Of a stretch of DNA of 64,000 bases, positions 1,005 through 57,087 are shown one piece after another. The notes under the pieces are model-generated. The model made no database searches. It was not told the origin of the DNA and was given only the letters and a program-made list of their open reading frames with translations. The translations under genes and the position numbers were made by a program. Position 1 is the first letter of the stretch. Each line of letters begins with the position of its first letter. Source of the DNA: Candidatus Omnitrophota bacterium (lineage in GTDB: Bacteria > Omnitrophota > Gorgyraeia > Ghiorseimicrobiales > Ghiorseimicrobiaceae); the NCBI GenBank assembly GCA_030681595.1, contig JAUXSB010000003.1, positions 223,207 through 287,206 of the forward strand, in the 5' to 3' direction.

Positions 1005-1799
1005 TTACTTAAATTTTAAAACAATTATCCTTTCTATAAGATTATAATCTTTAATGGTTTCACTAACCATAAAATTTCCTGATTGCTTAGCGATATTCCC
1101 TATTGCCTCTTTTTGGTTATCGCCCATTTCCATGATTAAATAACCATTTTCCCTTAGGTGCCGGGGCGAATCTTTGATTACCTTTCGGTAAAAATCTAGG
1201 CCATCGCAGCCGCCATCTAAGGCAATCATGGGTTCATATTGCACTTCTTTAGGTAATTTTTTAATCTCATCACTACTAATATACGGGGGATTGGAGACAA
1301 TAATATCGCAGCAGGCAACAGGCAGCAAGCAACAGGCAAAAAAATCTGATTGTAAAAACTTAATTCTGCCGGCGACATTATTTAATTCCGCATTTTCCTG
1401 CGCAATATTTATGGCTTCGAGAGAAATATCTATTGCAATAACTTCTGCCTCCGGTAAAAATTTTGCCAGACTCACGGCAATACATCCGGAACCAGTACCA
1501 ATATCCAATATATTTAAGCTTGCAGCCTGTAGCTTGCAGCCTGTAGCTATTTTTATAGCCGTTTCTACCAAAATCTCTGTCTCGGGACGAGGAATAAACA
1601 CACCCTCCCTCACCATAATCTTTAAGCCCATAAATTCGCTCGAACCTAAAATATATTGCAAAGGCAGGCCGGCAGAGCGTAATTTAAGCACGTCCTTTAA
1701 CCGGGCATAATGCTTAGCGTTTAACAACCCGCCCTTTAGGTATAATTCATGCCGCGGGCAATCCAATAAACTCGTTAGGATTAATTCCGCTTCATTCAT
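1005..1799 (-). CDS. prmC: Release factor glutamine N5-methyltransferase PrmC/HemK.
   Basis: 264-aa protein with a DIGTGSGCIA SAM-binding motif and an NPPY motif. It overlaps prfA by 4 nt, the classic prfA-prmC operon arrangement. Confidence 0.85.
   Translation of the reverse strand: MNEAELILTSLLDCPRHELYLKGGLLNAKHYARLKDVLKLRSAGLPLQYILGSSEFMGLKIMVREGVFIPRPETEILVETAIKIATGCKLQAASLNILDIGTGSGCIAVSLAKFLPEAEVIAIDISLEAINIAQENAELNNVAGRIKFLQSDFFACCLLPVACCDIIVSNPPYISSDEIKKLPKEVQYEPMIALDGGCDGLDFYRKVIKDSPRHLRENGYLIMEMGDNQKEAIGNIAKQSGNFMVSETIKDYNLIERIIVLKFK
1309..1344 (-). repeat. Imperfect direct repeat GCAACAGGCA(n) inside prmC.
   Basis: GCAGGCAACAGGCAGCAAGCAACAGGCAAAAAAA encodes ACCLLPVACC. A second 14-bp x2 repeat (GCTTGCAGCCTGTA) lies at ~1517-1548 in the same gene. 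Confidence 0.8.
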
Positions 1800-12325: not shown

Positions 12326-12811
12326 TTACAGCGATTTTTTACTGGATTTTTTATCCGCCAATATTTTATCATATTCTTCTTCTTCCAGATACATAATTGC
12401 GCCCACAGGGCAGGCCTTAATACAACGCGGCTCATCCACATCCGCGCATAAATCGCATCTTATGGGGATTTTAAGTTTTTTATTATCCCTAATTGCCCCG
12501 TAGGGACAAACCATCACGCACATCCAACAGCCGATACACCTGTCTTTATCATGGATTACCCGTTTTTTATTCTCGTCATAAGTTAACGCCTTGGCAATAC
12601 AGGCATCCACACAAGGATGCGTTTTGCAATGACGGCAGGCAATAGGGAAATTTTTACCTTGCGTTGTTTTAACAATAACGCAGGAGCGCGGTTTTATCTC
12701 TTCGCCAACCGCCTTAAATAAATCCTTTGATGCGCTTTTACCTGTAGCACAGGCAATCTCACAGGATTTACAGGCTAAACACTTAGAAACATCATAGTAT
12801 AATTTTTTCAT
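12326..12811 (-). CDS. 4Fe-4S ferredoxin-domain protein (MetV-like partner of MetF).
   Basis: 161-aa protein with multiple CxxCxxCxxxCP clusters, located immediately downstream of metF. Confidence 0.6.
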   Translation of the reverse strand: MKKLYYDVSKCLACKSCEIACATGKSASKDLFKAVGEEIKPRSCVIVKTTQGKNFPIACRHCKTHPCVDACIAKALTYDENKKRVIHDKDRCIGCWMCVMVCPYGAIRDNKKLKIPIRCDLCADVDEPRCIKACPVGAIMYLEEEEYDKILADKKSSKKSL

Positions 12812-12944
12812 TAATTAAATACCCAATCACCAATTACCAATTACCAAATCCCAATTAATTCCCACATTGTTCAATTTCCAATTTTTTTATATTGGTCATT
12901 GGTAATTTATTTAACATTGGCAATTGGGCATTGATCATTTTTAG
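12812..12944 (-). promoter_or_regulatory. L4 CCAAT/ATTGG-array leader upstream of the metV-like ferredoxin gene.
   Basis: Sense: CCCAATTGCCAATGTTAAATAAATTACCAATGACCAAT...AATTGGAAATTGAACAATGTGGGAATTAATTGGGATTTGGTAATTGGTAATTGGTGATTGGGTATTTAATTA-ATG. Confidence 0.45.
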
Positions 12945-19369: not shown

Positions 19370-19699
19370 TTATAAGGTCGCTTTCCTGCCTACTTTCTTG
19401 CGTAAATAATATAATTTTGCGCGCTTTACCTTTACAGAACCGGCAACTTCTATATTCTTTATAGAAGGAGAATGCACTATAAAAACTTTTTCAACTCCCT
19501 CGCCAAAAGATACCTTTCTTACCGTAATAGTCAGGCGCAGGCCGCTGCCTTTTTTGGCAATAACTGTCCCCTCAAAGGGATGAAGCCTGATTTTATCCCC
19601 TTCGGGTATCTTTACGTAAACTTTTACGTGGTCGCCGATATTAATTTTCGGCAAATCGGTTCTTAACTGTGCCTGTTCTAATAATGTGACTTTACTCAT
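19370..19699 (-). CDS. rplS: 50S ribosomal protein L19.
   Basis: 109-aa protein with L19 family sequence. It overlaps trmD by 4 nt. Confidence 0.95.
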
Positions 19700-20496
19700 T
19701 TAATTACTCCTTCCTTATTTTCCGTAGAATTTAAAAGATCCGGCCTTTTTAGGCGCGTAACCTTAAGCGCCTGATATTTACGCCATTCATCGATTTCCTT
19801 ATGATTTCCGGATAAAAGTACTTGGGGAACCTTCCTTCCGCGAAAATCAGCAGGCCGGGTATATTGCGGATACTCTAATAGATTACCCTCAAATGACTCA
19901 AATTTCAAGGAATTTTTATCGCCCAACACTCCCGGTATAAGCCGTGTCACAACATCCACTAAAACCATTGCCGCAACCTCGCCTCCGGTTAAAACATAAT
20001 CACCGATAGAAATTTCACTGTCCGCTAAATTATCCCTTACGCGCTCGTCTATGCCCTCGTAATGCCCGCAGATTAGAACTAGATGTTTATTCTTAGCTAA
20101 TTTTTTGACTAAACCTTGAGTTAAAGTTTTACCTTGGGGACTAAGCAGAATAATTTTTGTGCTTTGCACTTTGCGTTCTGCACTTTGCGCTTTGCGTTTT
20201 TTTGACGCATGACGCATGGCGCATGGCGCATGGCGCAAAATATTTTCTACTGCGCGAAATATTGGCTCTGGGCTCATTACCATGCCGCTTCCGCCGCCAA
20301 AAGGGCGGTCGTCAACTTTTCTGTGTTTATCTAAAGTATAATCTCTTAAGTTGTGAATATGAATTTTTAATTTTCCTTTATTCTGCGCGCGCTTGATAAT
20401 AGATTCATCCAACACGGCTGAAAACATATCGGGAAAAATTGTAATAATATCTATACGCATATTACCTGCAAGGATAGACTTTCCTATTACTCTCAA
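19696..20496 (-). CDS. trmD: tRNA (guanine37-N1)-methyltransferase TrmD.
   Basis: 266-aa protein with the TrmD SPOUT fold sequence. It carries an in-frame insertion of about 25 aa ([24 protein letters not shown]) encoded by heptamer tandem repeats. Confidence 0.9.
20159..20240 (-). repeat. Heptamer tandem repeats inside trmD.
   Basis: (CATGGCG)x3, (CATGCGT)x2 and several CGCAAAG/TGCAAAG units. They are in frame and encode the inserted [24 protein letters not shown] segment. Confidence 0.9.
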
Positions 20497-24533: not shown

Positions 24534-25707
24534 TGCCTATTTCCTCTATTTTTGCCCCGGGATAATAGAATTTAAGGATATCCTGATATTTATAGCCTTT
24601 TCTAGAAGCAAAATACGCCCCCCACTGGCACATCCCCACGCCATGGCCCCAGCCGAAACCTTCAAAATATATATTATCTCCGGAAAATGTTAAGTCAAAA
24701 TTTGTGCTGCGGATATCCGTTCCCCCGATTATCTGGCGAAAATCCTTTGCCGAGATGATATGATTAGCGGATTTCGATTTTAACTTTAATTTTTTTACCC
24801 TGCCTGACTTATCCCTGCCCAAAATTTCTATTGCCTCTAAAGAATCAATGCTATATCCGGATTTATTCAATTTATTAATAAGCTCCGAGCGAGATAAAGT
24901 TTTTTGCCATTTGAAATGCTTCGACTTTACGCAAAAATTGCAATCAACTCCTTTAAGCGGGACAAGATTCATATCCCAAAGCTGGGCCGCATCTTCTGTC
25001 TTTCCCCCGCAGGTGGCATGAAAGTATGCCGGAAAGATTTTTCCCTTATAAGTCAAAACCAATCCCTTGGTATGCTCAACAGCAGAATTAGTCCGGTAAC
25101 GCTCGGCGTCTTTACCGCCATACACTTGAGAATAAATATCGCTGGTTACATCGTAATCTTTATCTTTACTCACTTCTTTCTGATAAAGTACGTATGTACG
25201 CGTAGCTACTGCCTGCGCGCAAAGAGCCTCTTTCGGCCAATGATGCGATACCTCATGAAATAAAACCCCCTTGACGTAATCTTCCAAATTTAGACAATTT
25301 ATTACCGAGAAGCTTAGGTCATTTTCTTTTCTTATAATCAGCCCGCCGCGCAAAGGGCGGTTGTTTAAATAAAATAAGGCGCTTTCCGGAAAAATAACTA
25401 TCCTGTTTTCCCTCAAAAGATTATCGCCTATTGTTATACCGTCTATATCCATATATACTTTCGCATTTATGTTTTCCCCTGCCCCTAAGGCGTTTTTTGT
25501 TTTTAAAGATTCTATTTTGTAATTGCCCTTTATATAAAGTTCAAAAGACGGAGCATTTTTTAAAATAAGCACGCGTACATAATTGCCAGTCTCGGATTGG
25601 GCATAAGCAAAAGAAAGGTAGCAAGTAGCAAGTAGCAAGTAGCAAGTAAAAAATAAAAAAATAAATAAGCTGGCGACTGGCGACTGGCGACTGGCGACTG
25701 TTTTCAT
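24520..25707 (-). CDS. SpoIID/LytB domain protein (amidase enhancer), secreted.
   Basis: SpoIID-family C-terminal region. The start was chosen at Met7 (MKTVASRQ...). The signal-peptide coding region contains two arrays of four heptamer repeats. Confidence 0.75.
   Translation of the reverse strand: MKTVASRQSPVASLFIFLFFTCYLLLATCYLSFAYAQSETGNYVRVLILKNAPSFELYIKGNYKIESLKTKNALGAGENINAKVYMDIDGITIGDNLLRENRIVIFPESALFYLNNRPLRGGLIIRKENDLSFSVINCLNLEDYVKGVLFHEVSHHWPKEALCAQAVATRTYVLYQKEVSKDKDYDVTSDIYSQVYGGKDAERYRTNSAVEHTKGLVLTYKGKIFPAYFHATCGGKTEDAAQLWDMNLVPLKGVDCNFCVKSKHFKWQKTLSRSELINKLNKSGYSIDSLEAIEILGRDKSGRVKKLKLKSKSANHIISAKDFRQIIGGTDIRSTNFDLTFSGDNIYFEGFGWGHGVGMCQWGAYFASRKGYKYQDILKFYYPGAKIEEIGNVAF
25617..25700 (-). 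repeat. Two adjacent heptanucleotide tandem arrays inside the SpoIID-like signal-peptide coding region.
   Basis: (AGCAAGT)x4 at ~25617-25648 and (CTGGCGA)x4 at ~25670-25700, separated by an A-rich tract. Confidence 0.9.
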
Positions 25708-34199: not shown

Positions 34200-35459
34200 T
34201 TATAGTTGCTCGAATTTCTTATTAATATATCCGGATGATTTTTTCAGTTGCGGATAAAATGAAGGTTTTGTGCCGGTTAAAATAAGCTCTGCGTTATCCT
34301 TGAAAACATCCCTCGGTAAAGAAAAAATATCGCGCAAGGCGTACTGGTCAGTTTTTTCTTTTCCGACTTCGGTAATATGGGTTATGCGGCGCAGGCCTTC
34401 GGAAGTACGTTCCATATGTACAATTAAATCCGCCGCAGAGATAATTTGGCGCATAATAACTTGACTGGATAAATTTGCCCCGCCCATTAAAGCCATAACT
34501 TCCATCCTGGACATCGCTTCTTCAGGAGCACTAGCATGCAAAGTAGTCATCGAGCCTTCATGGCCAGTATTCATCGCCTGCAGCATATCAAGAACCTCTT
34601 CTCCGCGTATCTCGCCGACAATAATCCTGTCCGGCCGCATATGTAAAGCGTTCCTAAGCAAATCCCGTATAGTTATCCCACCCTTGCCTTCAATATTGGC
34701 AAGCCTTGCCTCCAGGCGCACGACATGAGGCGATAAAGGCCTTAATTCTAAAGTGTCTTCAATAATAATGACACGCTCATTAGCCGGGATATAAGACGAC
34801 AGGACATTTAAAAGCGTTGTTTTTCCGCATGAGGTGCCGCCGGAAACAATAATATTTAACCGTGCAGAAACAGAAGCCTTAAGGAATTCTGCCGCTTCTT
34901 CAGTTAGAGTCTTAAAACCGATAAAATCCTGGATAGAAAAAACCTGATGCGAAAATTTATGTATGCTGATGACCGGCCCGCCTGAAGCCGTGGGAGCAAT
35001 AACTATATTTACCCTGAAACCGTCCTTAAGCCTTGCATCAACATATGTCTCGCTTTCATTAACGCGCCGCCCCAGCGGCGAGAGCATCCTCTCTATTAGT
35101 ATCATCAGTTCACGCTCAGTGCTAAAACGTATATCCGTTAATTCCAATTTACCATTACGCTCTATATATATCTGGCCAGGCCCATTCACCATAATTTCTG
35201 TAATAGATTCATCCGCGATTAAGCCCTCTAATACTCCAAGCCCCAGTATTTCATCTACGACTTCCTCAACAAGCTTCCTCTGATCTTCTGGAGAAAACGC
35301 AATCCCGCGCTCTCTTCTTAAGACAGCATTCGTAACTTCTAATGTCGCCCGGTGCAGCTCATCTTCGATAGCCTTGGAATTCTTCAGGAAAAAACTCGCG
35401 GGAAGGCGGCTATGCAGCTGCTCTTTAATTTTTTCCTTAAGTTTAAATCTTTCATCCAT
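34200..35459 (-). CDS. CpaF/TadA-family type II/IV secretion ATPase.
   Basis: 419-aa protein with a Walker A motif (GGTSCGKTT) and a CpaF-type core. No pilus or secretion partner genes are nearby. Confidence 0.75.
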   Translation of the reverse strand: MDERFKLKEKIKEQLHSRLPASFFLKNSKAIEDELHRATLEVTNAVLRRERGIAFSPEDQRKLVEEVVDEILGLGVLEGLIADESITEIMVNGPGQIYIERNGKLELTDIRFSTERELMILIERMLSPLGRRVNESETYVDARLKDGFRVNIVIAPTASGGPVISIHKFSHQVFSIQDFIGFKTLTEEAAEFLKASVSARLNIIVSGGTSCGKTTLLNVLSSYIPANERVIIIEDTLELRPLSPHVVRLEARLANIEGKGGITIRDLLRNALHMRPDRIIVGEIRGEEVLDMLQAMNTGHEGSMTTLHASAPEEAMSRMEVMALMGGANLSSQVIMRQIISAADLIVHMERTSEGLRRITHITEVGKEKTDQYALRDIFSLPRDVFKDNAELILTGTKPSFYPQLKKSSGYINKKFEQL

Positions 35460-36705
35460 CTCTTACCTCAAGCGTTTTTCTAATTTGTGCCGCGGCCGAA
35501 TCTTTACCGACAGCCACAATAATATTATCTCGGCGCTTTACGATTTCAAGCTTACCTTCATCTAAATTTTTTTCCCCAATAATAATTTTTACTGGTATAC
35601 CGATTAAATCCGCGTCTTTAAATTTTGCACCGGGGCGCTCATCGCGGTCATCCAATAAAACATTAAATTCACCGGATAAATCTTCATAAAGCTTAAACGC
35701 CAGCTCTTTGATCCTAGAATGCTCCATATTTAAAGGGATTATCAGTAAATCATAGGGGCTTACTTCCCGTGGCCATATTATACCATTTTTATCATAATTC
35801 TGCTCGATAATTGCGGCGATTAAACGGCTTACCCCTATACCGTAACAACCCATCACTATCGGCCTTATTTCGCCGCTTTTGCCGGCAAAAACCGCCTCCA
35901 GTGTTTTACTGTATTTTGTGCCTAATTTAAAAATATGGCCTACCTCAATTACGGTTTTTGTTTCTAACTTATTTTTGCAGTTAGGGCAATTCGTTAAGCC
36001 GTCTTCGGCGGTTTTAGCAAAATTGCACCCCGGGCATACTACTACCCTGTCTTCCCCGCTTAAAGCCTCCACCATAAATTCGCAGGATTCGCTGCCACCC
36101 ATTACGCCGCAGTCTGCCTGTGTAGAAAGAAAAGAAAGGCCGCACCTTTTAAATATCGTTTCATATGCAGCAAACATCTTGCGATAATTTTTATCCAAAC
36201 TATTTTCGTCAACATCAAAACTATAAGCATCTTTCATGATGAATTCGCAGGCCCGCATTACTCCAAACCGCGGCCTTAACTCATCGCGGTATTTAGTCTG
36301 AATCTGATAAAGCGTTACCGGTAACTGCCTATAGGAACGCACCTGATTTTTTACCAAATCTGTTATTACCTCTTCGTGGGTTGGGCCTAAACAGAGTTTT
36401 CTGCCGCGGCGGTCAGTGAACCTGATCATCGTCTCGCCCATTTGTTCGTCTCTGCCGGACTTGACCCATAATTCCTGCGGTTGCAGGCCCGGGAGTAAAA
36501 CCTCCTGCGCTCCTGTCTTATCCATTTCCTCGCGGATAATATTCTCGATATTTTTTAAAACTTTAAAGCCCAAAGGCAGATAGGAATACACTCCTGAAAC
36601 GAGCATGCGGATAAGGCTAGCTCTTAACATCAGCTTATGGCTAATGCTTTCTGCGGCCTCAGGCGCCTCCTTTAAAGTATGAATAAAACTTTCTGACCAA
36701 AGCAT
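35452..36705 (-). CDS. proS: Proline--tRNA ligase (short bacterial-type, without the INS editing domain).
   Basis: 417-aa class II core motifs with a CxxC...CxxC zinc-ribbon insert (CPGCNF...CPNCKN). Confidence 0.9.
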   Translation of the reverse strand: MLWSESFIHTLKEAPEAAESISHKLMLRASLIRMLVSGVYSYLPLGFKVLKNIENIIREEMDKTGAQEVLLPGLQPQELWVKSGRDEQMGETMIRFTDRRGRKLCLGPTHEEVITDLVKNQVRSYRQLPVTLYQIQTKYRDELRPRFGVMRACEFIMKDAYSFDVDENSLDKNYRKMFAAYETIFKRCGLSFLSTQADCGVMGGSESCEFMVEALSGEDRVVVCPGCNFAKTAEDGLTNCPNCKNKLETKTVIEVGHIFKLGTKYSKTLEAVFAGKSGEIRPIVMGCYGIGVSRLIAAIIEQNYDKNGIIWPREVSPYDLLIIPLNMEHSRIKELAFKLYEDLSGEFNVLLDDRDERPGAKFKDADLIGIPVKIIIGEKNLDEGKLEIVKRRDNIIVAVGKDSAAAQIRKTLEVRDG

Positions 36706-36786
36706 TTTTCCTCACTACGTTCGGAAGAAACCAGATACCAGTTGCCCGAAACCAGGAAATTCTGGCATCTGGTTACTGGTTTCTGG
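36706..36786 (-). promoter_or_regulatory. L3 leader element upstream of proS.
   Basis: Sense: GAAACCAGTAACCAGATGCCAG...CTGGTTTC...ACTGGTATCTGGTTTC, then GAGG and ATG. Confidence 0.45.
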
Positions 36787-37860
36787 TCACTTTATAAATA
36801 TCTCTTTTAACAACACTTCCACGCATTTATTGGCAGACACCTTTTTTATCGGCTTTCCGTGCTTAAACAATAACCCGTCTTTTTTACCAAAGGCAATACC
36901 TATATCTGCTTCTCTTGCCTCTCCCGGTCCGTTGACGACACAGCCCATAACGGCCACCTTCATTGAGTTAGCGTTTAGCGGATAGCGTTTAGCGGATAGC
37001 CTCTTTTCTAAATTATTAACGATATTTACCAAATTTACTTCGCATCTGCCGCAGGTAGGGCAACTGATAATCTCAGGGCCAAAATTGCGTAAACCTAACG
37101 AGCCCAAAATAACCTTTGCCGCGCTTACTTCGTCTTGGGGCTTTTCCGTAAGCGATACCCTGATAGTATCTCCAATCCCTTCCAATAAAAGCGCCCCCAA
37201 GGCAATGCTTGATTTTATTGCGCCTGCATACGGGCTTCCTGTAGCGGTAAGGCCTAAATGCAAAGGATAATTGGTAAGTTTGGCCATTTTACGATAAGCT
37301 TCTATGGTGTCAAGGATGTTTGAGGCTTTCAATGAAACCACGATATTATAAAAACCAAAACCCTCTAACATCTTTATGTAATCTTGCGCGCTTTTCACCA
37401 TTCTTTCTACACTTGACCCCTGACCCCTGACCCCTGACACTTCTTTTTTTACCGAGCCGGAATTAACTCCGACCCTAATCGGAATTCCGGCTTTTTTTGC
37501 CGCTTCTGCTACAGTTTTAATCTGGCGAGCTTTAAAAATATTTCCCGGGTTTAGTCTTATCTTATCCGCACCGTTTTTTATCGCTAAAAGCGCTAATTTA
37601 TAATCAAAATGAATATCCGCAACTAAAGGAATATTTATTTTACGTTTAATCTTGCTTATCGCCGCGGCCGATTCTTTATCCTTAACGGTAACTCTTATTA
37701 TTTCGCAGCCGGATTTTTCTAGCGACTTTATTTGCCTAACAACCGCGTCAACATCCTTAGTATCGACCTTTACCATTGACTGAATGATGATAGGATTACT
37801 GCCGCCTATCTTCACTCTACCTATTTTTATTTCTCTGGTTTTATGCCTGTCTATCTGCAT
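36787..37860 (-). CDS. ispG: 4-hydroxy-3-methylbut-2-enyl diphosphate synthase.
   Basis: 357-aa GcpE family protein. It carries two in-frame repeat insertions at ~36969-37000 and ~37417-37437. Confidence 0.9.
   Translation of the reverse strand: MQIDRHKTREIKIGRVKIGGSNPIIIQSMVKVDTKDVDAVVRQIKSLEKSGCEIIRVTVKDKESAAAISKIKRKINIPLVADIHFDYKLALLAIKNGADKIRLNPGNIFKARQIKTVAEAAKKAGIPIRVGVNSGSVKKEVSGVRGQGSSVERMVKSAQDYIKMLEGFGFYNIVVSLKASNILDTIEAYRKMAKLTNYPLHLGLTATGSPYAGAIKSSIALGALLLEGIGDTIRVSLTEKPQDEVSAAKVILGSLGLRNFGPEIISCPTCGRCEVNLVNIVNNLEKRLSAKRYPLNANSMKVAVMGCVVNGPGEAREADIGIAFGKKDGLLFKHGKPIKKVSANKCVEVLLKEIFIK
36969..37000 (-). repeat. 14-bp tandem repeat (GCGTTTAGCGGATA)x2 inside ispG, identical to the L5 leader 3'-arm units.
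   Basis: It encodes ...RLSAKRYPLNAN... The same 14-mer pair occurs in the purA leader at 44283-44330. Confidence 0.85.
37417..37437 (-). repeat. (CCCCTGA)x3 heptamer array inside ispG.
   Basis: 21 nt, in frame, encoding a GQGSSV-type low-complexity stretch. Confidence 0.85.
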
Positions 37861-37886
37861 TTTAAATCAATAGTATGATTGCGGAA

Positions 37887-38960
37887 TCATTTAAAAGATT
37901 TAACCCAATTTGCCACATTATCCAAAACAGAAAAATTAATTATATCATTATAAACAGTAAAAACCGCAAGCATTATCAAGAGGCTCATCCCTACGCGGGC
38001 AATTGCTTCTTCGGTGTTTCTCTTTAGAACTCTTCCCCTGATTTTCTCTAAAAATATAAGGGCAAGATGCCCGCCGTCTAATACCGGAAAAGGCAAGAGA
38101 TTAATCACGCTTAAACTTAAACTAAGAATGGCTAAAACATGCAATAGCGGCCCTAACCCCATGCTTGCCGCGCCTGTTGTAATATAATAAATACCTATAG
38201 GCCCGGCGACAGAGCGCTTAAAAGAAACCTTGCCTGTAAACATTAAAGCCAGTGTTTTATAATAAAAAAAAGTGGTTTTTAAATAATCTTTTAAAGCTAC
38301 GGGCAATACGTCTTTTATTCCGTATTTCAAATGCCCCTGTTTTATTCCAATGAGCGATATTTCCTGTTTGCCTTTCATTGTATCAAATTGCTCTATCTTA
38401 GTAGGTATTTGTAGTATTTTACTTTCACCGTTCCTTAATAATGTAATACTTACCGGCGTACCTTTTTTATCTTGTATAAACCCGACCATTTCAATCCAAA
38501 ATTCCACCTTCTTGCCGTCAACGGAAATTACTTTATCCCCGGCTAATACACCGGCGTCAAAAGCCGGATAGCCTTCCATGGTCTTGCCTATCGTAGTGCT
38601 GGAATCAGGAATACCTAAAAGCAGTGCAAAACAAAGGCAGAAAAACCCTAATATATAATTTAAGCCTACCCCGGAAACAATAATCTTTGCGCGATCTTTA
38701 GGTTTCTGCGTTAAATATTCATCTTTTTTTCCTTTGCACTCGCCCCATTCGTCTCCTGCCATTTTAATAAAACCACCTAATGGAAAAACGCATACCTGAT
38801 ATAAAGTATCGCCTTTTTTTATGCTGAACAGCTTTGGCCCGAAGCCTAAAGAAAATTTCTCTACTTTTACGCCTACTTTTCTTGCGGCAATAAAATGCCC
38901 GAACTCATGCACAACAATAAGGATACTTAAAATTATAAGCGGAATTAAGAAAGATAGCAT
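37887..38960 (-). CDS. rseP: RIP site-2 zinc metalloprotease RseP.
   Basis: 357-aa protein with an HEFGH motif in TM1, a PDZ domain and the LDGG motif. Confidence 0.85.
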   Translation of the reverse strand: MLSFLIPLIILSILIVVHEFGHFIAARKVGVKVEKFSLGFGPKLFSIKKGDTLYQVCVFPLGGFIKMAGDEWGECKGKKDEYLTQKPKDRAKIIVSGVGLNYILGFFCLCFALLLGIPDSSTTIGKTMEGYPAFDAGVLAGDKVISVDGKKVEFWIEMVGFIQDKKGTPVSITLLRNGESKILQIPTKIEQFDTMKGKQEISLIGIKQGHLKYGIKDVLPVALKDYLKTTFFYYKTLALMFTGKVSFKRSVAGPIGIYYITTGAASMGLGPLLHVLAILSLSLSVINLLPFPVLDGGHLALIFLEKIRGRVLKRNTEEAIARVGMSLLIMLAVFTVYNDIINFSVLDNVANWVKSFK

Positions 38961-40087
38961 TTTACCTCGTTTCTTGCCCAGGCATCTATTTTTAATATTT
39001 CTTCTAAGCCCGGGTTGCTGACTACCCTATGCCTCTCTAACACCTTTTCAATGATTTTGGCGATCTCGATAAAACTTATCCGCCTATCTAAAAAAGCACA
39101 CACTGCCTCCTCATTAACCGCGTTTAAAACACAAGGGGCACTCCCCTTAGCTAATGAGGCCTCTTTTGCCAACCGCAGGCAAGGAAACTTTTTAAAATCG
39201 GGCTTTGCAAAGGTTAATTTTTTAATCGCGGTAAAATCCAAATTTTTAAAACCGGAATTTATGCGTTCGGGGTAAGTTAAAGCATACTGGATAGGAATAC
39301 GCATATCGGTAACCGCAAGCTGGGCCAAGACAACACCGTCAATAAATTCAACCATGGAATGAATTATCGCCTCCGGATGTATCAATATCTCTATTTCTTC
39401 GGATTTTAAACCGAACAAATACATTGCCTCAATTAATTCCAAGCCTTTATTCATGAGTGTCGCCGAATCGATAGAAATTTTTCTGCCCATCCTCCAACGC
39501 GGATGGTCAAGCGCCTTATCCGGAGTTATCCTTGAGAATCTTTTTTCCGGCATATCTTTTAATGGGCCGCCGGATGCTGTCAGGTATACTTTTTTAAGCG
39601 TTGCCTTATCCTCATTCTTAAGGCATTGGAATATCGCGCTTTGCTCGCTATCTACCGGGATTATCTTAACTTTCTTTTCTTTTGCTTTTTTGACTATTAA
39701 CGGCCCTGCCATCACCAAGGCTTCTTTATTGGCCAAGGCAATTGCCTTGGTTTTCTCTAATGCTTTTAATACCGGTAAGAGTGCCCCGCTTCCGCTTATC
39801 GCCATTACCACTAAATCGCTTTTGTTATCAAGTAAATTTTCTATAGCGCATTCGCCCTTTAAAACTTTAGTTTTTCCTTTGATTTTCTTTTCCAATATCC
39901 TTGCTTTCTCTATATCGCCTATCGCCACATATTCAGGAGAAAATTTATCAATCTGTTTTAACAGTAATTCGGTATTAGAATGCGCGGATAAACCCAACAC
40001 CCTGAATTTATCTTTATTGCGAAAGATTACGTCTAAACTATTTTCCCCGATAGAACCCGTAGAACCTAATATAATAACCTGTTTCAT
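38945..40087 (-). CDS. dxr: 1-deoxy-D-xylulose 5-phosphate reductoisomerase.
   Basis: 380-aa protein with an N-terminal GSTGSIG NADPH motif and Dxr family sequence. Confidence 0.95.
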   Translation of the reverse strand: MKQVIILGSTGSIGENSLDVIFRNKDKFRVLGLSAHSNTELLLKQIDKFSPEYVAIGDIEKARILEKKIKGKTKVLKGECAIENLLDNKSDLVVMAISGSGALLPVLKALEKTKAIALANKEALVMAGPLIVKKAKEKKVKIIPVDSEQSAIFQCLKNEDKATLKKVYLTASGGPLKDMPEKRFSRITPDKALDHPRWRMGRKISIDSATLMNKGLELIEAMYLFGLKSEEIEILIHPEAIIHSMVEFIDGVVLAQLAVTDMRIPIQYALTYPERINSGFKNLDFTAIKKLTFAKPDFKKFPCLRLAKEASLAKGSAPCVLNAVNEEAVCAFLDRRISFIEIAKIIEKVLERHRVVSNPGLEEILKIDAWARNEVKCYLS

Positions 40088-40095
40088 TTAAGCTT

Positions 40096-40902
40096 CTAAA
40101 GCGCCTTATCAATAAATACGCTCATAAGAAAATAAAATACCGGGGCAGTAAAAAGCAGGCTGTCTATAATATCTAAGACTCCGCCCATACCCGGAAAGAT
40201 ATGGCCTGAGTCTTTAATATGACAGTCACGCTTAATCAACGATTCCGAAAGATCGCCCAATTGCCCCAAAATTCCCAAACCTACGCCCAATAAAACCAGA
40301 TGCAAATAAGAAAAACCCGGAATAAATACCTTACTGGCAAGAGCTGCGAGCACCGAAAAAATAATCCCCCCTACCGCCCCTTCGATAGATTTTTGGGGGC
40401 TGATACGTGCAATTAAGCTGTGCCGGCCGTATTTCGTACCGATTAAATATGCCCCGATATCCCCGGACTTGGTGATTAAAAGTAGCGCTGCCACTAACCA
40501 TGCTCCTCCGGGCAAAAGCTTTATTTTAATTAAAAAACTAGAAAACCAGGCTATGTAAAGTATCCCGAATAACGTTGTTGAAACTCCTTCTATAGCGCCT
40601 TTATTCTCACGCCTGGTAAATTGCAGGAGGAAAATTATCAGCAATGCCGCGACAATAAATAATAATTCCCAGCTTTTGGTAAGTTCAAATTTAAAATAAA
40701 TAGAGAGGGGAATAATTAGCCCGATGACAATGCCAAAATATTTGTATATTTGGATGCCTTTTCTTTCGACTAGTGTAAAAAATTCATAAAGCCCGAATAC
40801 GGTAAGAATTATAACCAAAACGGCAAAAACCCAGTTTACCAATATGCTGATAACGCTTAACCCTATTAAAAATAATGCGCTGATTACTCTCTTAACTGTC
40901 AT
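40096..40902 (-). CDS. cdsA: Phosphatidate cytidylyltransferase.
   Basis: 268-aa polytopic membrane protein with the CdsA C-terminal signature. Confidence 0.85.
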   Translation of the reverse strand: MTVKRVISALFLIGLSVISILVNWVFAVLVIILTVFGLYEFFTLVERKGIQIYKYFGIVIGLIIPLSIYFKFELTKSWELLFIVAALLIIFLLQFTRRENKGAIEGVSTTLFGILYIAWFSSFLIKIKLLPGGAWLVAALLLITKSGDIGAYLIGTKYGRHSLIARISPQKSIEGAVGGIIFSVLAALASKVFIPGFSYLHLVLLGVGLGILGQLGDLSESLIKRDCHIKDSGHIFPGMGGVLDIIDSLLFTAPVFYFLMSVFIDKAL

Positions 40903-41621
40903 TTTATCCTTCCGAACCTCCTCTGGCGGCTGCTAAAAATTTCTATAGCCTCTTCTAGATCATTCTTCTTAAAATCAGGCCAGAGCTTATCAGTAAAATA
41001 CAACTCTGAATAAGAAAGCTGCCAAAGCATAAAGTTACTGATACGCTGTTCACCTGAAGTACGGATTAAAAGATCCGGCTCAGGCAGGCTTTTGGTATAA
41101 AGATGGCCCGAGAAATATGCCTCGTTAATTTTCCCGGTATCAAAAGACTTGTCGTTTTTTATTTCTTCGACAATGGACTTTACGGCATTGATTATTTCAA
41201 AACGCCCTCCGTAATCTAGCGCTAAGTTTAAAATAAGCCTCGAATTATCCCGCGTAGATTTTACCGCTTCTTCTATTTCGCGCAGTAGGCGCTTGGGTAT
41301 ACGGTCGCGCCTGCCCATGACATTTAGGCGGATGCCATTTTTTTTTAATTCGCCTAAATTATTTTTCAGGTAATTTTCCAGATACTTCATCAACATATTT
41401 ATTTCGTGTTTAGGCCTGTTCCAATTTTCCGTAGAGAAAGTAAATATAGTAAGTACTTTTATCCCTAATTCATTGGCGGCATTGACTATTTCTTTAACTC
41501 TTTTTACGCCTTCTAAGTGTCCGAAGGTACGCGGGAAACCTCGCGCCCTTGCCCAGCGGCCATTGCCATCCATTATAATCGCTACATGCTGAGGTATCAT
41601 ATAAAAATATGTGATTAACAA
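40899..41621 (-). CDS. uppS: Di-trans,poly-cis-undecaprenyl-diphosphate synthase.
   Basis: 240-aa protein with HVAIIMDGNGRWA and cis-IPPS family motifs. Confidence 0.95.
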   Translation of the reverse strand: MLITYFYMIPQHVAIIMDGNGRWARARGFPRTFGHLEGVKRVKEIVNAANELGIKVLTIFTFSTENWNRPKHEINMLMKYLENYLKNNLGELKKNGIRLNVMGRRDRIPKRLLREIEEAVKSTRDNSRLILNLALDYGGRFEIINAVKSIVEEIKNDKSFDTGKINEAYFSGHLYTKSLPEPDLLIRTSGEQRISNFMLWQLSYSELYFTDKLWPDFKKNDLEEAIEIFSSRQRRFGRIK

Positions 41622-41647
41622 AACGGGGGATTTTTATCCCCCGTTTT
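41620..41647 (-). terminator. Bidirectional rho-independent terminator downstream of the coiled-coil gene.
   Basis: AAAACGGGGGA-TTTTT-ATCCCCCGTTTT forms a perfect 11-bp GC-rich stem flanked by T or A runs on both strands. Confidence 0.7.
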
Positions 41648-41707
41648 AAAGCCTGGTAAATACGCCTTAAAGAATACGCCTGTTTTGCCGCAGGCTGAAT
41701 ATCTTGT

Positions 41708-42115
41708 CTACTTCATTGAACCATCCTGTTTTTTCTGCTTCTGGCGCTCTTTCATTAATGACTCTTTTAAATCTTCCTCAAGGGTTTCTTTAAGCCGGGT
41801 CATTTTCTCTAGTTCTTCTTTTAAGCTGTCGTTGACTAATTGCTCCTGCACCAATGCTTTCTTTGTAGCTTGATTAGCCGTCTTTTCCTCTTCTATCTGG
41901 GAAGCTAATTGCCTGATATTTTCTCGTAAGGCAGACTTTTCTTTTAAAAAATTTGCATTCTGCTCTTCCATCTCTATACGCTTCCTCAGTTCTTCCTGTA
42001 GATTATTTTTATATTTGCCTATTTCGCTGTGTACTCCGATAGCCCAAAAGAAAAATATCAAGCATAATGTACTCACAATCAGAATAATACGATTCTTAAC
42101 TGCATCTTCAATCAT
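41708..42115 (-). CDS. Hypothetical coiled-coil protein with an N-terminal TM anchor.
   Basis: 135-aa protein with one TM helix, then a heptad-rich Glu/Lys/Leu sequence. Confidence 0.4.
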   Translation of the reverse strand: MIEDAVKNRIILIVSTLCLIFFFWAIGVHSEIGKYKNNLQEELRKRIEMEEQNANFLKEKSALRENIRQLASQIEEEKTANQATKKALVQEQLVNDSLKEELEKMTRLKETLEEDLKESLMKERQKQKKQDGSMK

Positions 42116-42146
42116 AGACCCCCCTTGGAATTAATTTATATAAGTC

Positions 42147-42830
42147 CTATTTAAGGTTTTCTTCCTGAAGTAACTCTGTAACGGGCTGAGGCCGCGCAGA
42201 GCCTTCTTCTTTTTTTATCTTGGTTACTTTAGGCAGAATAACAATTTCCACCCTGCGGTTAAGCTGACGCCCTTCTTTAGTATCATTGGAAGCTACCGGG
42301 CGAAACTCTCCATAGCCTATCGCAGAAACTCTCTCTCCGGTGATTTCCGTATTGCTTACCAGATAATGCAAAACGCTTAAGGCGCGTTGAGCGGATAATT
42401 CCCAGTTGGATTTCCAATGCGAGCGCTTAATCTGGACATTATCAGTATGGCCCTCAATACCCACATTTAAATCCGGGACATTTTCACTTAACACTTTCGC
42501 GATTTTATCTAAGCTGTTGAAAGCAGAGCTCCTGACTTCCGCTTTACCGGAGTCAAAAAGGATATCCGCAAGAAAAGTAATCACTAAGCCCTTCTCTGCC
42601 ATTTCTAATTTTACCTGCTTATCGGAAATTTCCTGCTTCAACCTCTCTTCTAAAAGCTTCTTGACATCCTCAAGCTCGCTCAATTGCTTACTCAGCGATT
42701 CGATTTTTTCAACATCCGACTTTCTGCCCTTTTGGAAAATTATTGTGCAACCGGCCAATGTAATTGCCAATACACAAACAAAAAATATTTTTAGCTTCTT
42801 TTCTAGCGCTTTAAGCATCTCTGCCTCCAT
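42147..42830 (-). CDS. OmpA/MotB-domain protein.
   Basis: 227-aa protein with an N-terminal TM helix, a coiled coil and a C-terminal OmpA-like peptidoglycan-binding domain (NRRVEIVIL). Confidence 0.65.
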   Translation of the reverse strand: MEAEMLKALEKKLKIFFVCVLAITLAGCTIIFQKGRKSDVEKIESLSKQLSELEDVKKLLEERLKQEISDKQVKLEMAEKGLVITFLADILFDSGKAEVRSSAFNSLDKIAKVLSENVPDLNVGIEGHTDNVQIKRSHWKSNWELSAQRALSVLHYLVSNTEITGERVSAIGYGEFRPVASNDTKEGRQLNRRVEIVILPKVTKIKKEEGSARPQPVTELLQEENLK

Positions 42831-42877
42831 GATTAAATACCGACGAATATTCTGGTGGGTTGATATAATTACTTTTA

Positions 42878-42905
42878 ACTATATCATAACACCTTAAAAA
42901 GTCAA
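42878..42905 (-). promoter_or_regulatory. Candidate sigma70-type promoter for the OmpA-like gene.
   Basis: Sense: TTGACT-16 nt-TATAGT, about 50 nt upstream of the ATG. Confidence 0.3.
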
Positions 42906-42936
42906 GTAAAGTTTAAAATACCACATATAATATATA

Positions 42937-42958
42937 AAAGGGTACGCTGCCTACCCTG
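42937..42958 (-). terminator. Putative rho-independent terminator downstream of purA.
   Basis: In sense orientation, AGGGTAGGCAGCGTACCCTTTT is a stem followed by a T run. Confidence 0.45.
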
Positions 42959-43013
42959 ACGAGTTATAGCCAATCTATTTGATAAAGCTACCAACCGGCC
43001 TATCCTTCTAGGA

Positions 43014-44282
43014 TTAACGAAAGATTGTCTCTGACCGCGCCGACCCCACAGAAACTATCCTTATTTTTGCCAAAATCAGATCCTCTAGCGCGCATAGGTA
43101 ATTTAAAGCATTTCTGGGAAGCCGGTTAAATTTATGTATCTTGCTTAAATCACTGCACCATCCTTTAAACGTCTTATAAACCGGCTGCGCCCCCGTTAAC
43201 ACTTCAAAATCGTACGGGAAATTACGGAATATTTTACCTTTATATTTATAAGAAACGCAAACCGAGATTTCCTTTAAATTATCCAAAACATCCAGCTTCA
43301 TCATTGCTACCTCGCGCACACCACTTAAACTGGTGGCATATTTTACTAAAACAGCATCAAACCATCCGCACCTTCTGGGCCGGCCGGTTGTCGCGCCGAA
43401 TTCCCTGCCTTTTTCTCTGATAATATCGGATAACTCATCCTTAAATTCGGTAGGGAAAGGGCCCTCTCCTACGCGCGTTGTATAAGCCTTTACCACACCA
43501 ACAACTTTATTTATTGTTTCCGGGGGCATCCCCGATCCGTTGCATATCCCCCCGGCAGTCGTATTAGACGACGTCACAAAAGGGTATGTCCCGAAATCAA
43601 TATCTAAAAATGTTCCTTGTGCGCCCTCGAAAAGAATAGATTTATTTTTTTTGACTACTTCCTGCAATAAAATGGTGGTATTGCAAATATATTTTGAAAT
43701 CCTCTTGCCGTAATCAAAGTATTGATTATAAAGCTGGTCTAAATCAAAACCGGGGTGCTTATATACTTTTTTAAAAATTTCGTTCTTTTCTTTAAGGTTA
43801 TCTTCTAATTTTTCTTTAAATACATTCGGATTGAGCAAATCAACCGCCCTGATCCCGCAACGGGAGATTTTATCGGCGTAACATGGCCCTATCCCGCGGC
43901 CGGTAGTGCCTATACGCTGAGTTCTTTTTGATTCACGCAGCTTGTCTAAAATACGATGATAGGGCATAATAATATGGCAAAGCTCGGATATCTTAAGATT
44001 AGATTTAAGTTTTATTCCGTTTTTATCAAGATATTCCATCTCCGAAAGTAAAGACTCGGGGTCAATCACTACCCCATTTGCAATAACGCAGGTTTTGGCC
44101 TTATGCAGAATTCCCGAAGGAATAAGATGAAAGACAAACTCCCTGTCGCCAACCACAACGGTATGTCCGGCGTTATTGCCGCCCTGAAAACGGACAATAT
44201 AATCTGCTTTTTCGGCCAAGATATCAATAATCTTGCCTTTGCCTTCATCGCCCCATTGTAAACCAACTATGGCTGTATTCAT
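43014..44282 (-). CDS. purA: Adenylosuccinate synthetase.
   Basis: 422-aa protein with QWGDEGKGK and GGNNAGHT motifs. Confidence 0.95.
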   Translation of the reverse strand: MNTAIVGLQWGDEGKGKIIDILAEKADYIVRFQGGNNAGHTVVVGDREFVFHLIPSGILHKAKTCVIANGVVIDPESLLSEMEYLDKNGIKLKSNLKISELCHIIMPYHRILDKLRESKRTQRIGTTGRGIGPCYADKISRCGIRAVDLLNPNVFKEKLEDNLKEKNEIFKKVYKHPGFDLDQLYNQYFDYGKRISKYICNTTILLQEVVKKNKSILFEGAQGTFLDIDFGTYPFVTSSNTTAGGICNGSGMPPETINKVVGVVKAYTTRVGEGPFPTEFKDELSDIIREKGREFGATTGRPRRCGWFDAVLVKYATSLSGVREVAMMKLDVLDNLKEISVCVSYKYKGKIFRNFPYDFEVLTGAQPVYKTFKGWCSDLSKIHKFNRLPRNALNYLCALEDLILAKIRIVSVGSARSETIFR

Positions 44283-44363
44283 ATTTTTATGGTTTAGCGG
44301 ATAGCGTTTAGCGGATAGAAAAATAAATTCGCTATACGCTATACCCTATACGCTCTACGCTAA
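44283..44363 (-). promoter_or_regulatory. L5 inverted 9/14-bp repeat leader upstream of purA.
   Basis: Sense: AATTAGCGTAGAGCGTATAGGGTATAGCGTATAGCG-AATTTATTTTT-CTATCCGCTAAACGCTATCCGCTAAACC...ATG. The 5' arm holds (TAGCG)n and the 3' arm (CGCTA)n. Confidence 0.45.
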
Positions 44364-50117: not shown

Positions 50118-50138
50118 GGATGACTCCTTTGCTGCAGT

Positions 50139-52128: not shown

Positions 52129-52201
52129 TCTAGCGTTTAGCGGTTAGCGTATAGGGTATAGGAAAAATATAAACTAAACGCTATTCGCTATACGCTCTAC
52201 G
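52129..52201 (-). promoter_or_regulatory. L5 leader upstream of clpP.
   Basis: Sense: AATTAGCGTAGAGCGTATAGCGAATAGCG...CTATACGCTAACCGCTAAACGCTAGAATGGGGGTAAGT-ATG. It shares the AATTAGCGTAGAGCGTATAGCG box with the purA leader. Confidence 0.45.
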
Positions 52202-55858: not shown

Positions 55859-56989
55859 CTAATTAATGCTTTCCCTAATGATTCCTCCGCCCAAGACGGT
55901 GTCCTTTTGATAAAAAACTACCGATTGTCCCGGAGTTACTGCCCTCTGAGGCAAACTAAACTCTATCCTTACACTATCCTTATTAATAGGAATAAGGCGG
56001 GATTTTACTTCCCGATGATTATACCTGATTTTAGCGCCAATGGCAATTATTTTTTTAAGTGGTAATCCCATGAGAAAATTAAGGTTATCGGCAATAAGCC
56101 CTTGCGCGCAAGTGTCTTTTTGCCCTCCTAAAACAATCACATTCTTCTTGGCATCTATTTTTACCACATACAAAGGCGCCGCATACCCCCCGCCTAAAGC
56201 CCGGCGTTGCCCGATAGTATAAAAAGGTATGCCCTGATGCTTCCCTATCACTCTGCCGTCTATATGGATAAGCGCACCCGGCACTATCTCTTTACCTATA
56301 CGCCCGGAGATAAAAGAACGATAATCATCATTAGGAATAAAACATATTTCCTGGCTGCCCGGTTTATCCGAAACCGGTAAGTTAAAATTACGGGCGAGCC
56401 GGCGCACCTCTTCTTTGGTATATTTACCGAGAGGGAAAATCAGATACGGCAATACTTCTTTTTTTATAGCATATAAAAAATAAGACTGGTCTTTTTGAGA
56501 ATCCTTGGCTTTCTTTAACAAATACTTATGTTTCAAGCGGTTATAGCAAAGCTTTACGTAATGGCCGGTCGCCAGATAATCACAAGACAACTCCCTTGCT
56601 TTCCTTAAAAGCAGATTAAATTTTAAAAACTGGTTACATTTTACGCACGGATTAGGAGTGCGCCCGGCAAGATATTCACTGCAGAAATTTTTTATTACTT
56701 TATCTTCTAAAACAGTTCCAAAACTAAAAACATAATGCTTAATCCCCAAAGTATTCGCGGTCTTACGCGCGTCTTCAATACCGCTAATCCCGCAACAAGA
56801 GGGCCGTTTTCTATTATCCGCGGCTTCTTCATCAAACAAAGATCCGCCGGAGGCGGATCCGCCTGCGGTGGAAAAACACATAGTCCCGCCGATAACCTCA
56901 TAGCCATCTTTCTGTAATAAAGCGGCGGCAACTGCCGAATCTACTCCGCCACTCATCGCAACCATTACCCGTTTCTTATTATTAGTCAT
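55859..56989 (-). CDS. mnmA: tRNA-specific 2-thiouridylase MnmA.
   Basis: 376-aa protein with a PP-loop (SGGVDS) and the MnmA family catalytic Cys residues. It contains an in-frame palindromic insertion at ~56841-56868. Confidence 0.9.
   Translation of the reverse strand: MTNNKKRVMVAMSGGVDSAVAAALLQKDGYEVIGGTMCFSTAGGSASGGSLFDEEAADNRKRPSCCGISGIEDARKTANTLGIKHYVFSFGTVLEDKVIKNFCSEYLAGRTPNPCVKCNQFLKFNLLLRKARELSCDYLATGHYVKLCYNRLKHKYLLKKAKDSQKDQSYFLYAIKKEVLPYLIFPLGKYTKEEVRRLARNFNLPVSDKPGSQEICFIPNDDYRSFISGRIGKEIVPGALIHIDGRVIGKHQGIPFYTIGQRRALGGGYAAPLYVVKIDAKKNVIVLGGQKDTCAQGLIADNLNFLMGLPLKKIIAIGAKIRYNHREVKSRLIPINKDSVRIEFSLPQRAVTPGQSVVFYQKDTVLGGGIIRESIN
56841..56868 (-). repeat. Perfect 19-nt palindrome GATCCGCCGGAGGCGGATC inside mnmA.
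   Basis: In frame, encoding part of TAGGSASGGSLFDEEAAD in a loop of the PP-loop domain. Confidence 0.8.
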
Positions 56990-57087
56990 TATTCAATGCC
57001 CAATTAACCAATTACCAATTTCCAATAAATGTCCAATTGTTCAATTACCAATTTTAATTTGACATTGGTTATTGGGATTTGTTAATT
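56990..57087 (-). promoter_or_regulatory. L4 CCAAT/ATTGG-array leader upstream of mnmA.
   Basis: Sense: CCCAATAACCAATGTCAAATTAAAATTGGTAATTGAACAATTGGACATTTATTGGAAATTGGTAATTGGTTAATTGGGCATTGAATA-ATG. It is homologous to 12812-12944. Confidence 0.45.

Follow-up and report, generated by a model that had tools for sequence, protein, structure and literature searches.

The gene ispG (gcpE) encodes 4-hydroxy-3-methylbut-2-enyl diphosphate (HMBPP) synthase, an essential Fe-S enzyme of the methylerythritol phosphate (MEP) pathway. In the metagenome-assembled genome (MAG) of a bacterium of the uncultured phylum Candidatus Omnitrophota, this gene holds two short tandem arrays of 7-nt units, both read in frame. 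They lie in a 64,000-nt stretch of contig JAUXSB010000003.1, which is hereafter called the window and to which all coordinates refer unless another locus is named. Here, the two arrays are set against the described heptanucleotide repeats, the other arrays of the window and the ispG genes of related and unrelated bacteria. It is argued that they are probably old, self-renewing arrays, each a solitary arm, tolerated in two protein loops that are modelled with low confidence.

Described heptanucleotide repeats

Short tandemly repeated repetitive (STRR) sequences of heterocystous cyanobacteria are built from the units CCCCAGT, TTGGTCA and CAACAGT, the first of which the unit CCCCTGA of the window appears to resemble. 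The window arrays are nevertheless not STRR sequences, their units being CCCCTGA and TAGCGGA/TAGCGTT and their host a member of Candidatus Omnitrophota. Like the Omnitrophota arrays, the STRR of Calothrix PCC 7601 and the GGGNATC and GGGGA(T/C)T repeats of Xanthomonas and Nostoc are dispersed heptamers, and they lie mostly between co-directional open reading frames (ORFs), within ~50 nt of ORF ends, and are transcribed (PMC4692102). Both their units and their host phyla differ from those considered here.

More generally, heptanucleotide units are the commonest class of long simple sequence repeats (SSRs) in bacteria, and few detailed studies of such repeats exist (PMC4692102, PMC4679880). Polymerase slippage, with a polymerase contact of ~7 nt, was proposed as the cause by Mrazek (2007), as summarized in PMC4679880; long SSRs are reported to be mostly intergenic, with units that are not a multiple of three under-represented in ORFs (Mrazek, 2007, per PMC4679880, PMC4692102). 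Both ispG arrays are heptanucleotide long SSRs by definition (head-to-tail units of 5-11 nt in at least about three copies), and the over-representation of tandem 7-nt units relative to other unit lengths is common to the Omnitrophota and other prokaryotes. Unlike the long SSRs described so far, the Omnitrophota arrays are typically paired into hairpins, form families common to several loci and species, and occur in frame at hotspots of essential genes.

Direct TAACTGA repeats of marine Beggiatoaceae, Cyanobacteria and Bacteroidetes stand in two to six copies, typically a few nucleotides upstream of starts, including those of essential genes; a post-transcriptional role was proposed for them, and their reverse strand translates to the 7-aa repeat LSVISYQ (PMC4679880). 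That system has one dominant unit per genome, in contrast to the many coexisting families of the Omnitrophota, and it has not been described as inverted pairs or in frame at conserved sites of housekeeping enzymes. Its location upstream of starts is matched only by the purA and clpP leader copies of the window, whereas the ispG arrays lie inside an ORF. No TAACTGA array is found among the 48 rows reported for the window by Tandem Repeats Finder, in which many other units coexist.

Borg tandem repeats are, like the arrays of ispG, perfect and fast-evolving, and the segments that they contribute to proteins are of low complexity and probably disordered (PMC9879509). Low-complexity segments of this kind are found at both ispG sites, as judged by the coil and the predicted local distance difference test (pLDDT) values of an AlphaFold2 model. 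Genic Borg units are reportedly multiples of 3 nt, whereas the ispG unit has 7 nt, three units are needed for one frame-neutral step, and the peptide is a three-frame reading of a single heptamer. Phase-variable contingency loci likewise hold repeats with a unit that is not a multiple of three within an ORF, and a frame switch would be possible in principle in ispG. However, ispG is not such a locus, because this MEP-pathway gene is essential, whereas the hosts of contingency loci are dispensable or surface-related, and because every Omnitrophota-type orthologue recovered reads through both sites without a stop, with no ON/OFF states. Repetitive extragenic palindromes (REP) and bacterial interspersed mosaic elements (BIME) share with the leader elements of the window their imperfection, dispersal, organization in families and position between co-transcribed genes, but the arms seen here are internally tandem with a 7-nt period, and the ispG copies are single arms in coding sequence. 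A literature search for a link between Omnitrophota and heptamer repeats returned nothing, within a coverage too limited to serve as proof of novelty.

Two solitary arrays in ispG

The ispG gene (36787..37860, minus strand) is an intact ORF of 357 aa with the Pfam domains PF04551 and PF26540. Its product is 100% identical to a deposited NCBI protein (P0001) from a 307-kb contig of a Candidatus Omnitrophota MAG, the only member of its protein cluster, and aligns end to end with the Aquifex IspG structure 3NOY (E = 2.8e-99). The array nearer the 3' end of the gene, called site 2 (36969..37000, minus strand), is reported by Tandem Repeats Finder with a perfect period of 14, 2.3 copies and 100% matches; its sense strand reads (CTATCCG)(CTAAACG)(CTATCCG)(CTAAACG)(CTAAC), and its 14-mer is an alternation of the heptamers TAGCGTT and TAGCGGA. 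It encodes R287-N298, RLSAKRYPLNAN, downstream of the CPTCGRC motif and ahead of the third Cys (MGC), and an earlier sequence-only reading of this DNA had located it near the C-terminal Cys cluster. The same reading had noticed a second array of CCCCTGA units, in frame and about 430 nt away. This is site 1 (37414..37438, minus strand), a perfect (TGACCCC)x3.6 array of period 7 with 100% matches that is unique in the window, lies ~415-440 nt from site 2 and, on the sense strand, is (GTCAGGG)x3.6, coding VSGVRGQGS (V141-S149).

Both arrays are solo arms. A partner arm for either was sought within the gene and not found, and the folding of the corresponding RNA was no better than that of shuffled sequences (z +2.1 for site 2 and +0.9 for site 1). 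The two-arm hairpin that defines elements of the REP type or of miniature inverted-repeat transposable elements (MITEs) is thus absent from ispG, whereas it is present in the leader copies. Long-range pairing of site 1 with site 2 in the window gene was rejected, their units not being complementary. In the ispG of locus L058 (match 6998-7978), the units GAAGGCT at site 1 and AGCCTTC at site 2 are exact reverse complements, and the two arrays could pair across ~430 nt of mRNA; such complementarity was seen in this one Omnitrophota-type orthologue only. A G-quadruplex at site 1 was also dropped, as the array has three GGGG runs whereas G-rich repeats prefer four units (PMC4692102). An ATG found 8 nt downstream of the site-2 array, a spacing like that of the leaders, was considered as an internal translation start and taken as coincidence, most orthologues having no ATG there.

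An AlphaFold2 model of the window protein, built on a 40-sequence alignment, reached a mean pLDDT of 90.6. In this model site 1 is coil, with pLDDT below 50 at residues 142-145 and a mean of 58 over the block 141-150, and site 2 is a coil loop that joins helix 277-289 to strand 301-305, with a mean of 74 over the block 291-300. The model thereby places both arrays in low-confidence loops of an otherwise confident prediction.

Units common to ispG and non-coding hairpins

The site-2 array resembles the leader of purA. The purA leader hairpin (44283..44363, minus strand; -26 kcal/mol, z -3.9) fills the spacer between an HMGL-like gene and purA, and its mRNA consists of five TAGCGnn-type units, an A/U-rich loop, the arm (CTATCCG)(CTAAACG)(CTATCCG)(CTAAACC) and 9 nt before the ATG. 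In the whole window, exact copies of the 14-mer GCGTTTAGCGGATA begin at 36971 and 36985, in ispG, and at 44304, outside it. When up to two mismatches are allowed, eight matches are found against 0.82 expected, and the maximum in 100 shuffles was three. The sequence-only reading had described the 14-mer pair of ispG as identical to the purA arm: the match is real, but it covers 27 of 28 nt, the longest exact run common to the two being 36973-36999 = 44292-44318. The statement that one repeat unit serves both as non-coding leader (before purA and, as a variant, before clpP) and as ispG coding DNA is borne out, the likeness being far above chance. It recurs in locus L082 (74% IspG identity), where site 2 is (CTGTCAA)(CTGTAAA)x2 and the hairpin just downstream of ispG is also made of CTGTAAA units.

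A quantitative comparison points in the same direction. When arrays in ispG were paired with non-ispG arrays, a 10-mer was shared in 6 of 68 pairs within a genome and in 41 of 2226 pairs between genomes (odds ratio 5.2, p = 0.002). Leaving out the window, from which the hypothesis had come, the figures were 4/42 and 26/1727 (odds ratio 6.9, p = 0.005). Unit pairs within one mismatch of each other numbered 299 against 106 in a composition-matched null, and the CGCTAT/AGCGGAT family was the commonest. Hairpins of this family stand at orthologous places in different species: purA is preceded by one in the window and in L027, and uppS by one in L009 and in L027. Those of the two latter loci lie at L009 6079-6131 and at L027 428-468 and 5925-5953. 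The purA and clpP leaders of the window have their first ~20 nt in common. A search for the units of ispG within 10 kb on either side of the gene gave matches in few loci, most clearly L027 and L052, with short flanks and low power. Single-linkage clustering of units (at most one mismatch, any rotation or strand) was abandoned as uninformative, 88 of the 105 arrays being chained into one cluster.

Conservation of the sites among IspG orthologues

For comparison, 80 ispG loci were taken, each with a flank of at most 10 kb per side, among them ~60 Omnitrophota-type and 14 outgroup orthologues; records labelled "uncultured Planctomycetales" (60-64% IspG identity) were grouped with the Omnitrophota by similarity only. 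Period-7 arrays are confined to the former: 52 were found in 808 kb of Omnitrophota-type loci and none in 284 kb of outgroup loci. Among 60 arrays in Omnitrophota sequence, 22 lie in ispG, 26 are intergenic, seven are at ORF edges and five are inside other genes, and the two ispG loops are therefore true array hotspots. Arrays scoring at least 10 were seen at site 2 in 16 Omnitrophota-type orthologues, the period-14 array of the window being counted apart, and at site 1 in seven loci.

Site 1, measured between NSGS and the next conserved helix, is 17 aa long in all of the 8 outgroup loci, out of 14, in which the segment boundary was found (Bacillota, Thermodesulfobacteriota and others), and all 14 have an LEK..KYG-type motif there. 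The claim that the CCCCTGA array adds seven residues does not hold against this background, since the window segment is just one residue longer than in Aquifex 3NOY and the outgroups (18 vs 17 aa). Instead of extending the protein by seven, the array overwrites the conserved motif LEKxILxKYGGVTPEAM. A gain of 7-8 aa is obtained only against the shortest Omnitrophota relatives (P0008, 11 aa; P0004, 10 aa). Site 2 is a constant 27 aa in the outgroup and 32 aa (+5) in the window. Unrelated IspG proteins thus carry residues at site 1, namely the motif that was overwritten, and lack the additional five of site 2. None of the Omnitrophota-type orthologues retains the site-1 motif, and their site 2 spans 28-46 aa, in most of them 32-33.

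The units vary by species (CGCTATC, GATTCAC, CTTACCA, AGCCTTC, TTCAATG, AACCACG and others), and the variable peptides, such as LSAIRYPLSA, STIDHRPST, VKGQGLRVKGQ and LNTQYSxLNT, are three-frame readings of a single heptamer. The family of the window is not restricted to it. In L081 (70% IspG identity), site 2 is (CTATACG)(CTAAGCG)(TTATACG)(CTAAACG)(CTATACG), which belongs to the compound 14-mer family of the window and occupies the same codons, and the CGCTAnn family also occupies site 2 in L038 and L055. Since these arrays stand at the same codons, the ispG array is, as judged from this comparison, older than the species and not a recent insertion of the purA leader. Site-2 arrays begin at about the same codon. 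With the register counted from the upstream anchor, the consensus units of 19 site-2 arrays had a mean Hamming distance of 4.44 in register against 5.0-5.5 when shifted, and 15 unit pairs were within two mismatches in register against one to five when shifted. Such in-register likeness would fit descent in place together with concerted evolution.

Origin and maintenance of the arrays

The explanation that we consider the probable one builds on what the comparison shows: the anatomy of the arrays, their lineage specificity and age, the hotspot status of the two loops, the location in these loops, the register conservation and the excess of within-genome sharing. It sets out from Omnitrophota genomes that, in the sequences compared, are rich in arrays of 7-nt units, mostly inverted pairs that form hairpins between co-directional genes; within genes, the arrays seen are always in a stop-free orientation and with a net length change that is a multiple of three. 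The two ispG loops very probably turned into landing pads early in the phylum and have kept arrays ever since. Replication slippage in 7-nt register may renew the arrays, and in genes only steps of plus or minus three units (21 nt, 7 aa) would survive, contraction and re-expansion homogenizing the array again; near-perfect arrays in many lineages point to such ongoing re-homogenization. Now and then, units may be replaced by those of another array in the genome through ectopic gene conversion or template switching; the 27-nt run common to ispG and the purA leader arm, and the CTGTAAA units found in two places in L082, would be accounted for in this way. Selection would then filter the arrays for a stop-free strand and frame neutrality, and the encoded peptides would be 7-aa-periodic, low-complexity spacers, probably neutral and devoid of a sequence-specific role.

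Units that are not a multiple of three are regarded as excluded from genes, yet in a whole uncultured phylum essential enzymes have retained arrays of such a unit, in frame and at the same codons, for a long evolutionary time, while the unit sequence turns over and at times matches non-coding hairpins of its own genome. This offers a natural system for the study of concerted evolution of dispersed microsatellites and a view of how non-coding repeat dynamics create and rewrite protein loops.

Several observations weigh against it. The placement of the arrays in loops depends on the AlphaFold model, and slippage is itself an inferred process. Slippage alone accounts neither for the inverted-repeat pairs nor for the cross-species keeping of one specific family, and it is insufficient for a between-genome sharing that is ~100x the rough random expectation (~0.01%). 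The identical 31-mer TAGCGTTTAGCGGATAGCGTTTAGCGGATAG is present in L009 (62% IspG identity) at a non-ispG locus (14266-14297). Neutral tolerance alone does not explain why arrays are so much denser in ispG than in the rest of the coding DNA, and the in-register similarity may be due in part to a conserved Leu codon where the arrays start. Within-genome sharing of units is only occasional, and the purA leaders of other species, which belong to varied families, do not systematically match the ispG arrays of the same genome; a systematic co-variation of the purA-leader family with the site-2 family was looked for across species and not seen. From the between-genome sharing, the L009 31-mer and the hairpins at orthologous places it follows that the unit families are not free-drifting microsatellites: they are either kept by function or spread by copying.

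A bolder possibility is put forward tentatively and with a modest chance of being right. Heptamer hairpins conserved in sequence across the phylum would stand at translation starts, often in the place of a Shine-Dalgarno sequence, and their arms would be actively copied between loci, also into the loop-coding parts of genes for essential enzymes (ispG, trmD, prmC, proS and probably others), through templated conversion or a mobilizing activity, maybe tied to a shared RNA-binding factor that reads heptamers. Protein loops at fixed landing pads would in this way be rewritten again and again by an element that acts at the level of nucleic acid.

It is rather doubtful that the arrays are functional nucleic-acid elements, with a factor reading CGCTAnn/UAGCGnn that binds both the leaders and the ispG mRNA and couples ispG to purA, clpP and uppS. 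Candidate readers would be a cold-shock-type RNA-binding protein with a 7-nt footprint or the complementary arm of another transcript; proteins of the S1, Csp or Csr type were proposed as binders of the TAACTGA repeats just upstream of starts, and each CspB protein occupies a single heptamer (PMC4679880). The conservation of the family at orthologous places (purA in the window and L027, uppS in L009 and L027) and the identical 31-mer of L009 would agree with such a function, as would the array region of the window and L081, ~82% alike by our count, which is more than expected of a variable loop, and the four leader hairpins that end 2-9 nt from an ATG with no Shine-Dalgarno sequence, in a window where 21 of 59 genes have one. 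However, the units at these ispG sites are unrelated in most other species, which means that the sites need no single motif, and many unit families exist side by side in one genome. The ispG arrays are single-stranded and partnerless, no Rfam family was matched, and no candidate for the factor was identified.

The sequence-only reading had proposed that a fragment of the purA/clpP leader is embedded in ispG. In its full form, this means a recent insertion of a mobile or duplicated leader arm at site 2 and a separate recent expansion of 21 nt at site 1, and it is unlikely. The 27-nt exact identity with the purA arm and the same alternation of two unit variants are what such an event would leave. 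Members of the leader family are scattered in the genome, those of purA and clpP being alike over their first ~20 nt; the shortest relatives have 7-8 aa fewer at site 1; and a whole two-armed hairpin in trmD resembles an inserted element. The proposal is contradicted by L081, which has a matching compound array at the same codons, by the same family at site 2 of L038 and L055, and by the enlargement of site 2 in every Omnitrophota-type orthologue, to the same 32-33 aa in most, with or without a visible array. The units of different species, most alike in a common register, also indicate an array that would predate the species. Moreover, 28 nt is not a multiple of three, so that a simple insertion of the block cannot be in frame; site 1 exceeds the outgroups by just one residue; and neither a target-site duplication nor a transposase was noticed, the ORFs of the window not having been screened systematically for RAYT/Y1 transposases.

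Selection at the protein level, with the 7-aa-periodic loops giving IspG some property peculiar to the lineage, for instance by covering the TIM-barrel active site like a flexible lid or by docking a partner near the Fe-S domain, is very unlikely. It would agree with the fairly constant length of site 2 despite sequence turnover and with the position of site 1 directly after the conserved NSGS strand, on the catalytic face of the barrel. On the other hand, the amino acids of the loops are unconserved beyond what the DNA periodicity dictates, the length of site 1 varies between 10 and at least 25 aa, the loops are modelled with low confidence, and SAIRYPLSA peptides also occur in unrelated enzymes. 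An artefact or chance is barely credible: short repeats can confuse assemblers and the window comes from a MAG, but the ORF is intact, in frame and 100% identical in translation to the deposited P0001, which puts the array in the public record, arrays stand at the same codons in dozens of MAGs from different studies, and eight matches against 0.82 expected argue against coincidence.

Hairpins between genes of the window

The ispG gene is not the only array-bearing place in the window. Arrays at period 7 or 14 number 8-10, against none or one at most other periods and three at period 21. The sites given by Tandem Repeats Finder are 1308, 1517, 12817-12927, 20156-20237, 25618-25700, 36725-36792, 36969, 37414, 44290-44362, 48497, 52131-52204 and 57000. 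In the usual layout, two arrays in inverted orientation occupy one spacer between co-directional genes, and the RNA would fold into a long hairpin interrupted every 7 nt. Folding z-scores were -2.0 to -5.1 in six of the eight intergenic regions folded, and folding was not significant for the remaining two, of which one is a pair (56985-57092) and the other an array without a partner (48485-48545).

All the hairpins that follow are on the minus strand. Besides the purA leader, the clpP leader (52129..52201, z -2.3) belongs to the CGCTAnn/TAGCGnn family, and its proximal arm (CTATACC)(CTATACG)(CTAACCG)(CTAAACG)CTAGA adjoins the ATG. A CCAGnnn/CTGGnnn hairpin (36725..36792; -35.8 kcal/mol, z -4.9) lies in the spacer between ispG and proS, 3' of the former and 5' of the latter. 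In the spacer 12812-12944, a paired hairpin of (CCAATTA)-type units (12817..12927, z -5.1) ends 8 nt before the ATG of 12326..12811, and a second array of the (CCAATTA) family (57000..57037), in the spacer 56990-57087, ends just before the ATG of 55859..56989. A paired hairpin of (GTAGCAA)x4.4 and (CTGGCGA)x4.4 with periodic mismatches (25618..25700, z -2.0) stands at the 5' edge of an ORF for a SpoIID-domain protein and may be coding or leader. No match to Rfam 15 was obtained at the gathering score in the whole window, nor at E<=1 in 36600-52300.

At four genes (purA, clpP, the one at 12326 for a 4Fe-4S protein and the one at 55859), the whole intercistronic spacer is taken up by a leader hairpin whose end lies 2-9 nt from the ATG. 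None of the four has a Shine-Dalgarno sequence, which is recognizable in only 21 of the 59 genes of the window. Their position suggests a possible role of the start-abutting hairpins in translation initiation or mRNA processing, and offers a lead on their function where many genes have no Shine-Dalgarno sequence.

The arrays at 25618-25700 and 48497-48529 fall within codons 1 to ~36 and 1 to ~13, respectively, of the longest ORFs, which encode the SpoIID-domain protein (TTG start) and a DUF1573 protein (GTG start). The starts of both ORFs are probably over-extended through leader arrays, and this is to be kept in mind in annotation, as ORF starts are easily extended in that way. In a TrmD homologue (P0124), the N-terminal extension "LSAARYPL" is an effect of the same kind.

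Arrays in frame in other genes

The trmD gene (19696..20496) contains a two-armed heptamer hairpin, (GCGCCAU/GCGUCAU)n with (GCAAAGY)n, at 20156..20237 on the minus strand (-37.1 kcal/mol, z -4.2). It is read in frame as 24 aa (residues 87-110), where TrmD of S. aureus has 3 aa, and the site is hypervariable across Omnitrophota, a (GCGYCAT)n family being common to several species and others having no insertion. In prmC (1005..1799), a heptamer/14-mer array at 1308..1338 codes ACCLLPVACC as a replacement with unchanged length, and a 14-mer array at 1517..1548 codes ATGCKLQAAS in a protein segment 4 aa longer than in T. maritima HemK; both are on the minus strand. These two arrays are roughly inverted, ~200 nt apart and both in frame, and ATGCKLQAAS comes just before the GTGSG motif for S-adenosylmethionine binding.

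In ProS, encoded downstream of ispG, arrays of differing units were found at about residue 238 in two species (L051 1867-1896 and L055 2719-2749), in proteins of 572-577 aa, and this position is a candidate for another conserved landing pad. The ProS of the window (35452-36705) is a short form of 417 aa, and some Omnitrophota loci have the 572-577-aa ProS at the same syntenic position.

A metagenome scan with (CGCTANN)x3CGCTA does not amount to a clean census of Omnitrophota, organisms of very different GC content, many of them high in GC, being among the matches listed. Among these matches, (CGCTATC)n is read in frame as SAIRYPLSA-type peptides in the metagenome contigs L088, L126, L151 and L158 (GC 0.37-0.49). 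The ORFs concerned, named from their translations only, are putative HypF, KdtA, LpxK, KdsB and TPR/glycosyltransferase-like proteins, and in L126 two adjacent genes bear one SAIRYPLSA-type array each. In annotation, 7-aa-periodic loops of Omnitrophota proteins, such as SAIRYPLSA, VKGQGLR and RHAPCAM, should be regarded as repeat-derived.

The pentamer AGCGG, which is contained in TAGCGGA and which we take to be the B. subtilis Chi core, led to a Chi-site reading of the unit; this was dropped, as AGCGG had no strand skew once the arrays were masked (62 vs 79). The ~59 genes of the main gene chain are all on the minus strand, an unusually long co-directional stretch. The plus-strand GC skew of the window is -0.157, and the purine-rich 5-mers GAAGA and AAAGA are strongly strand-skewed.

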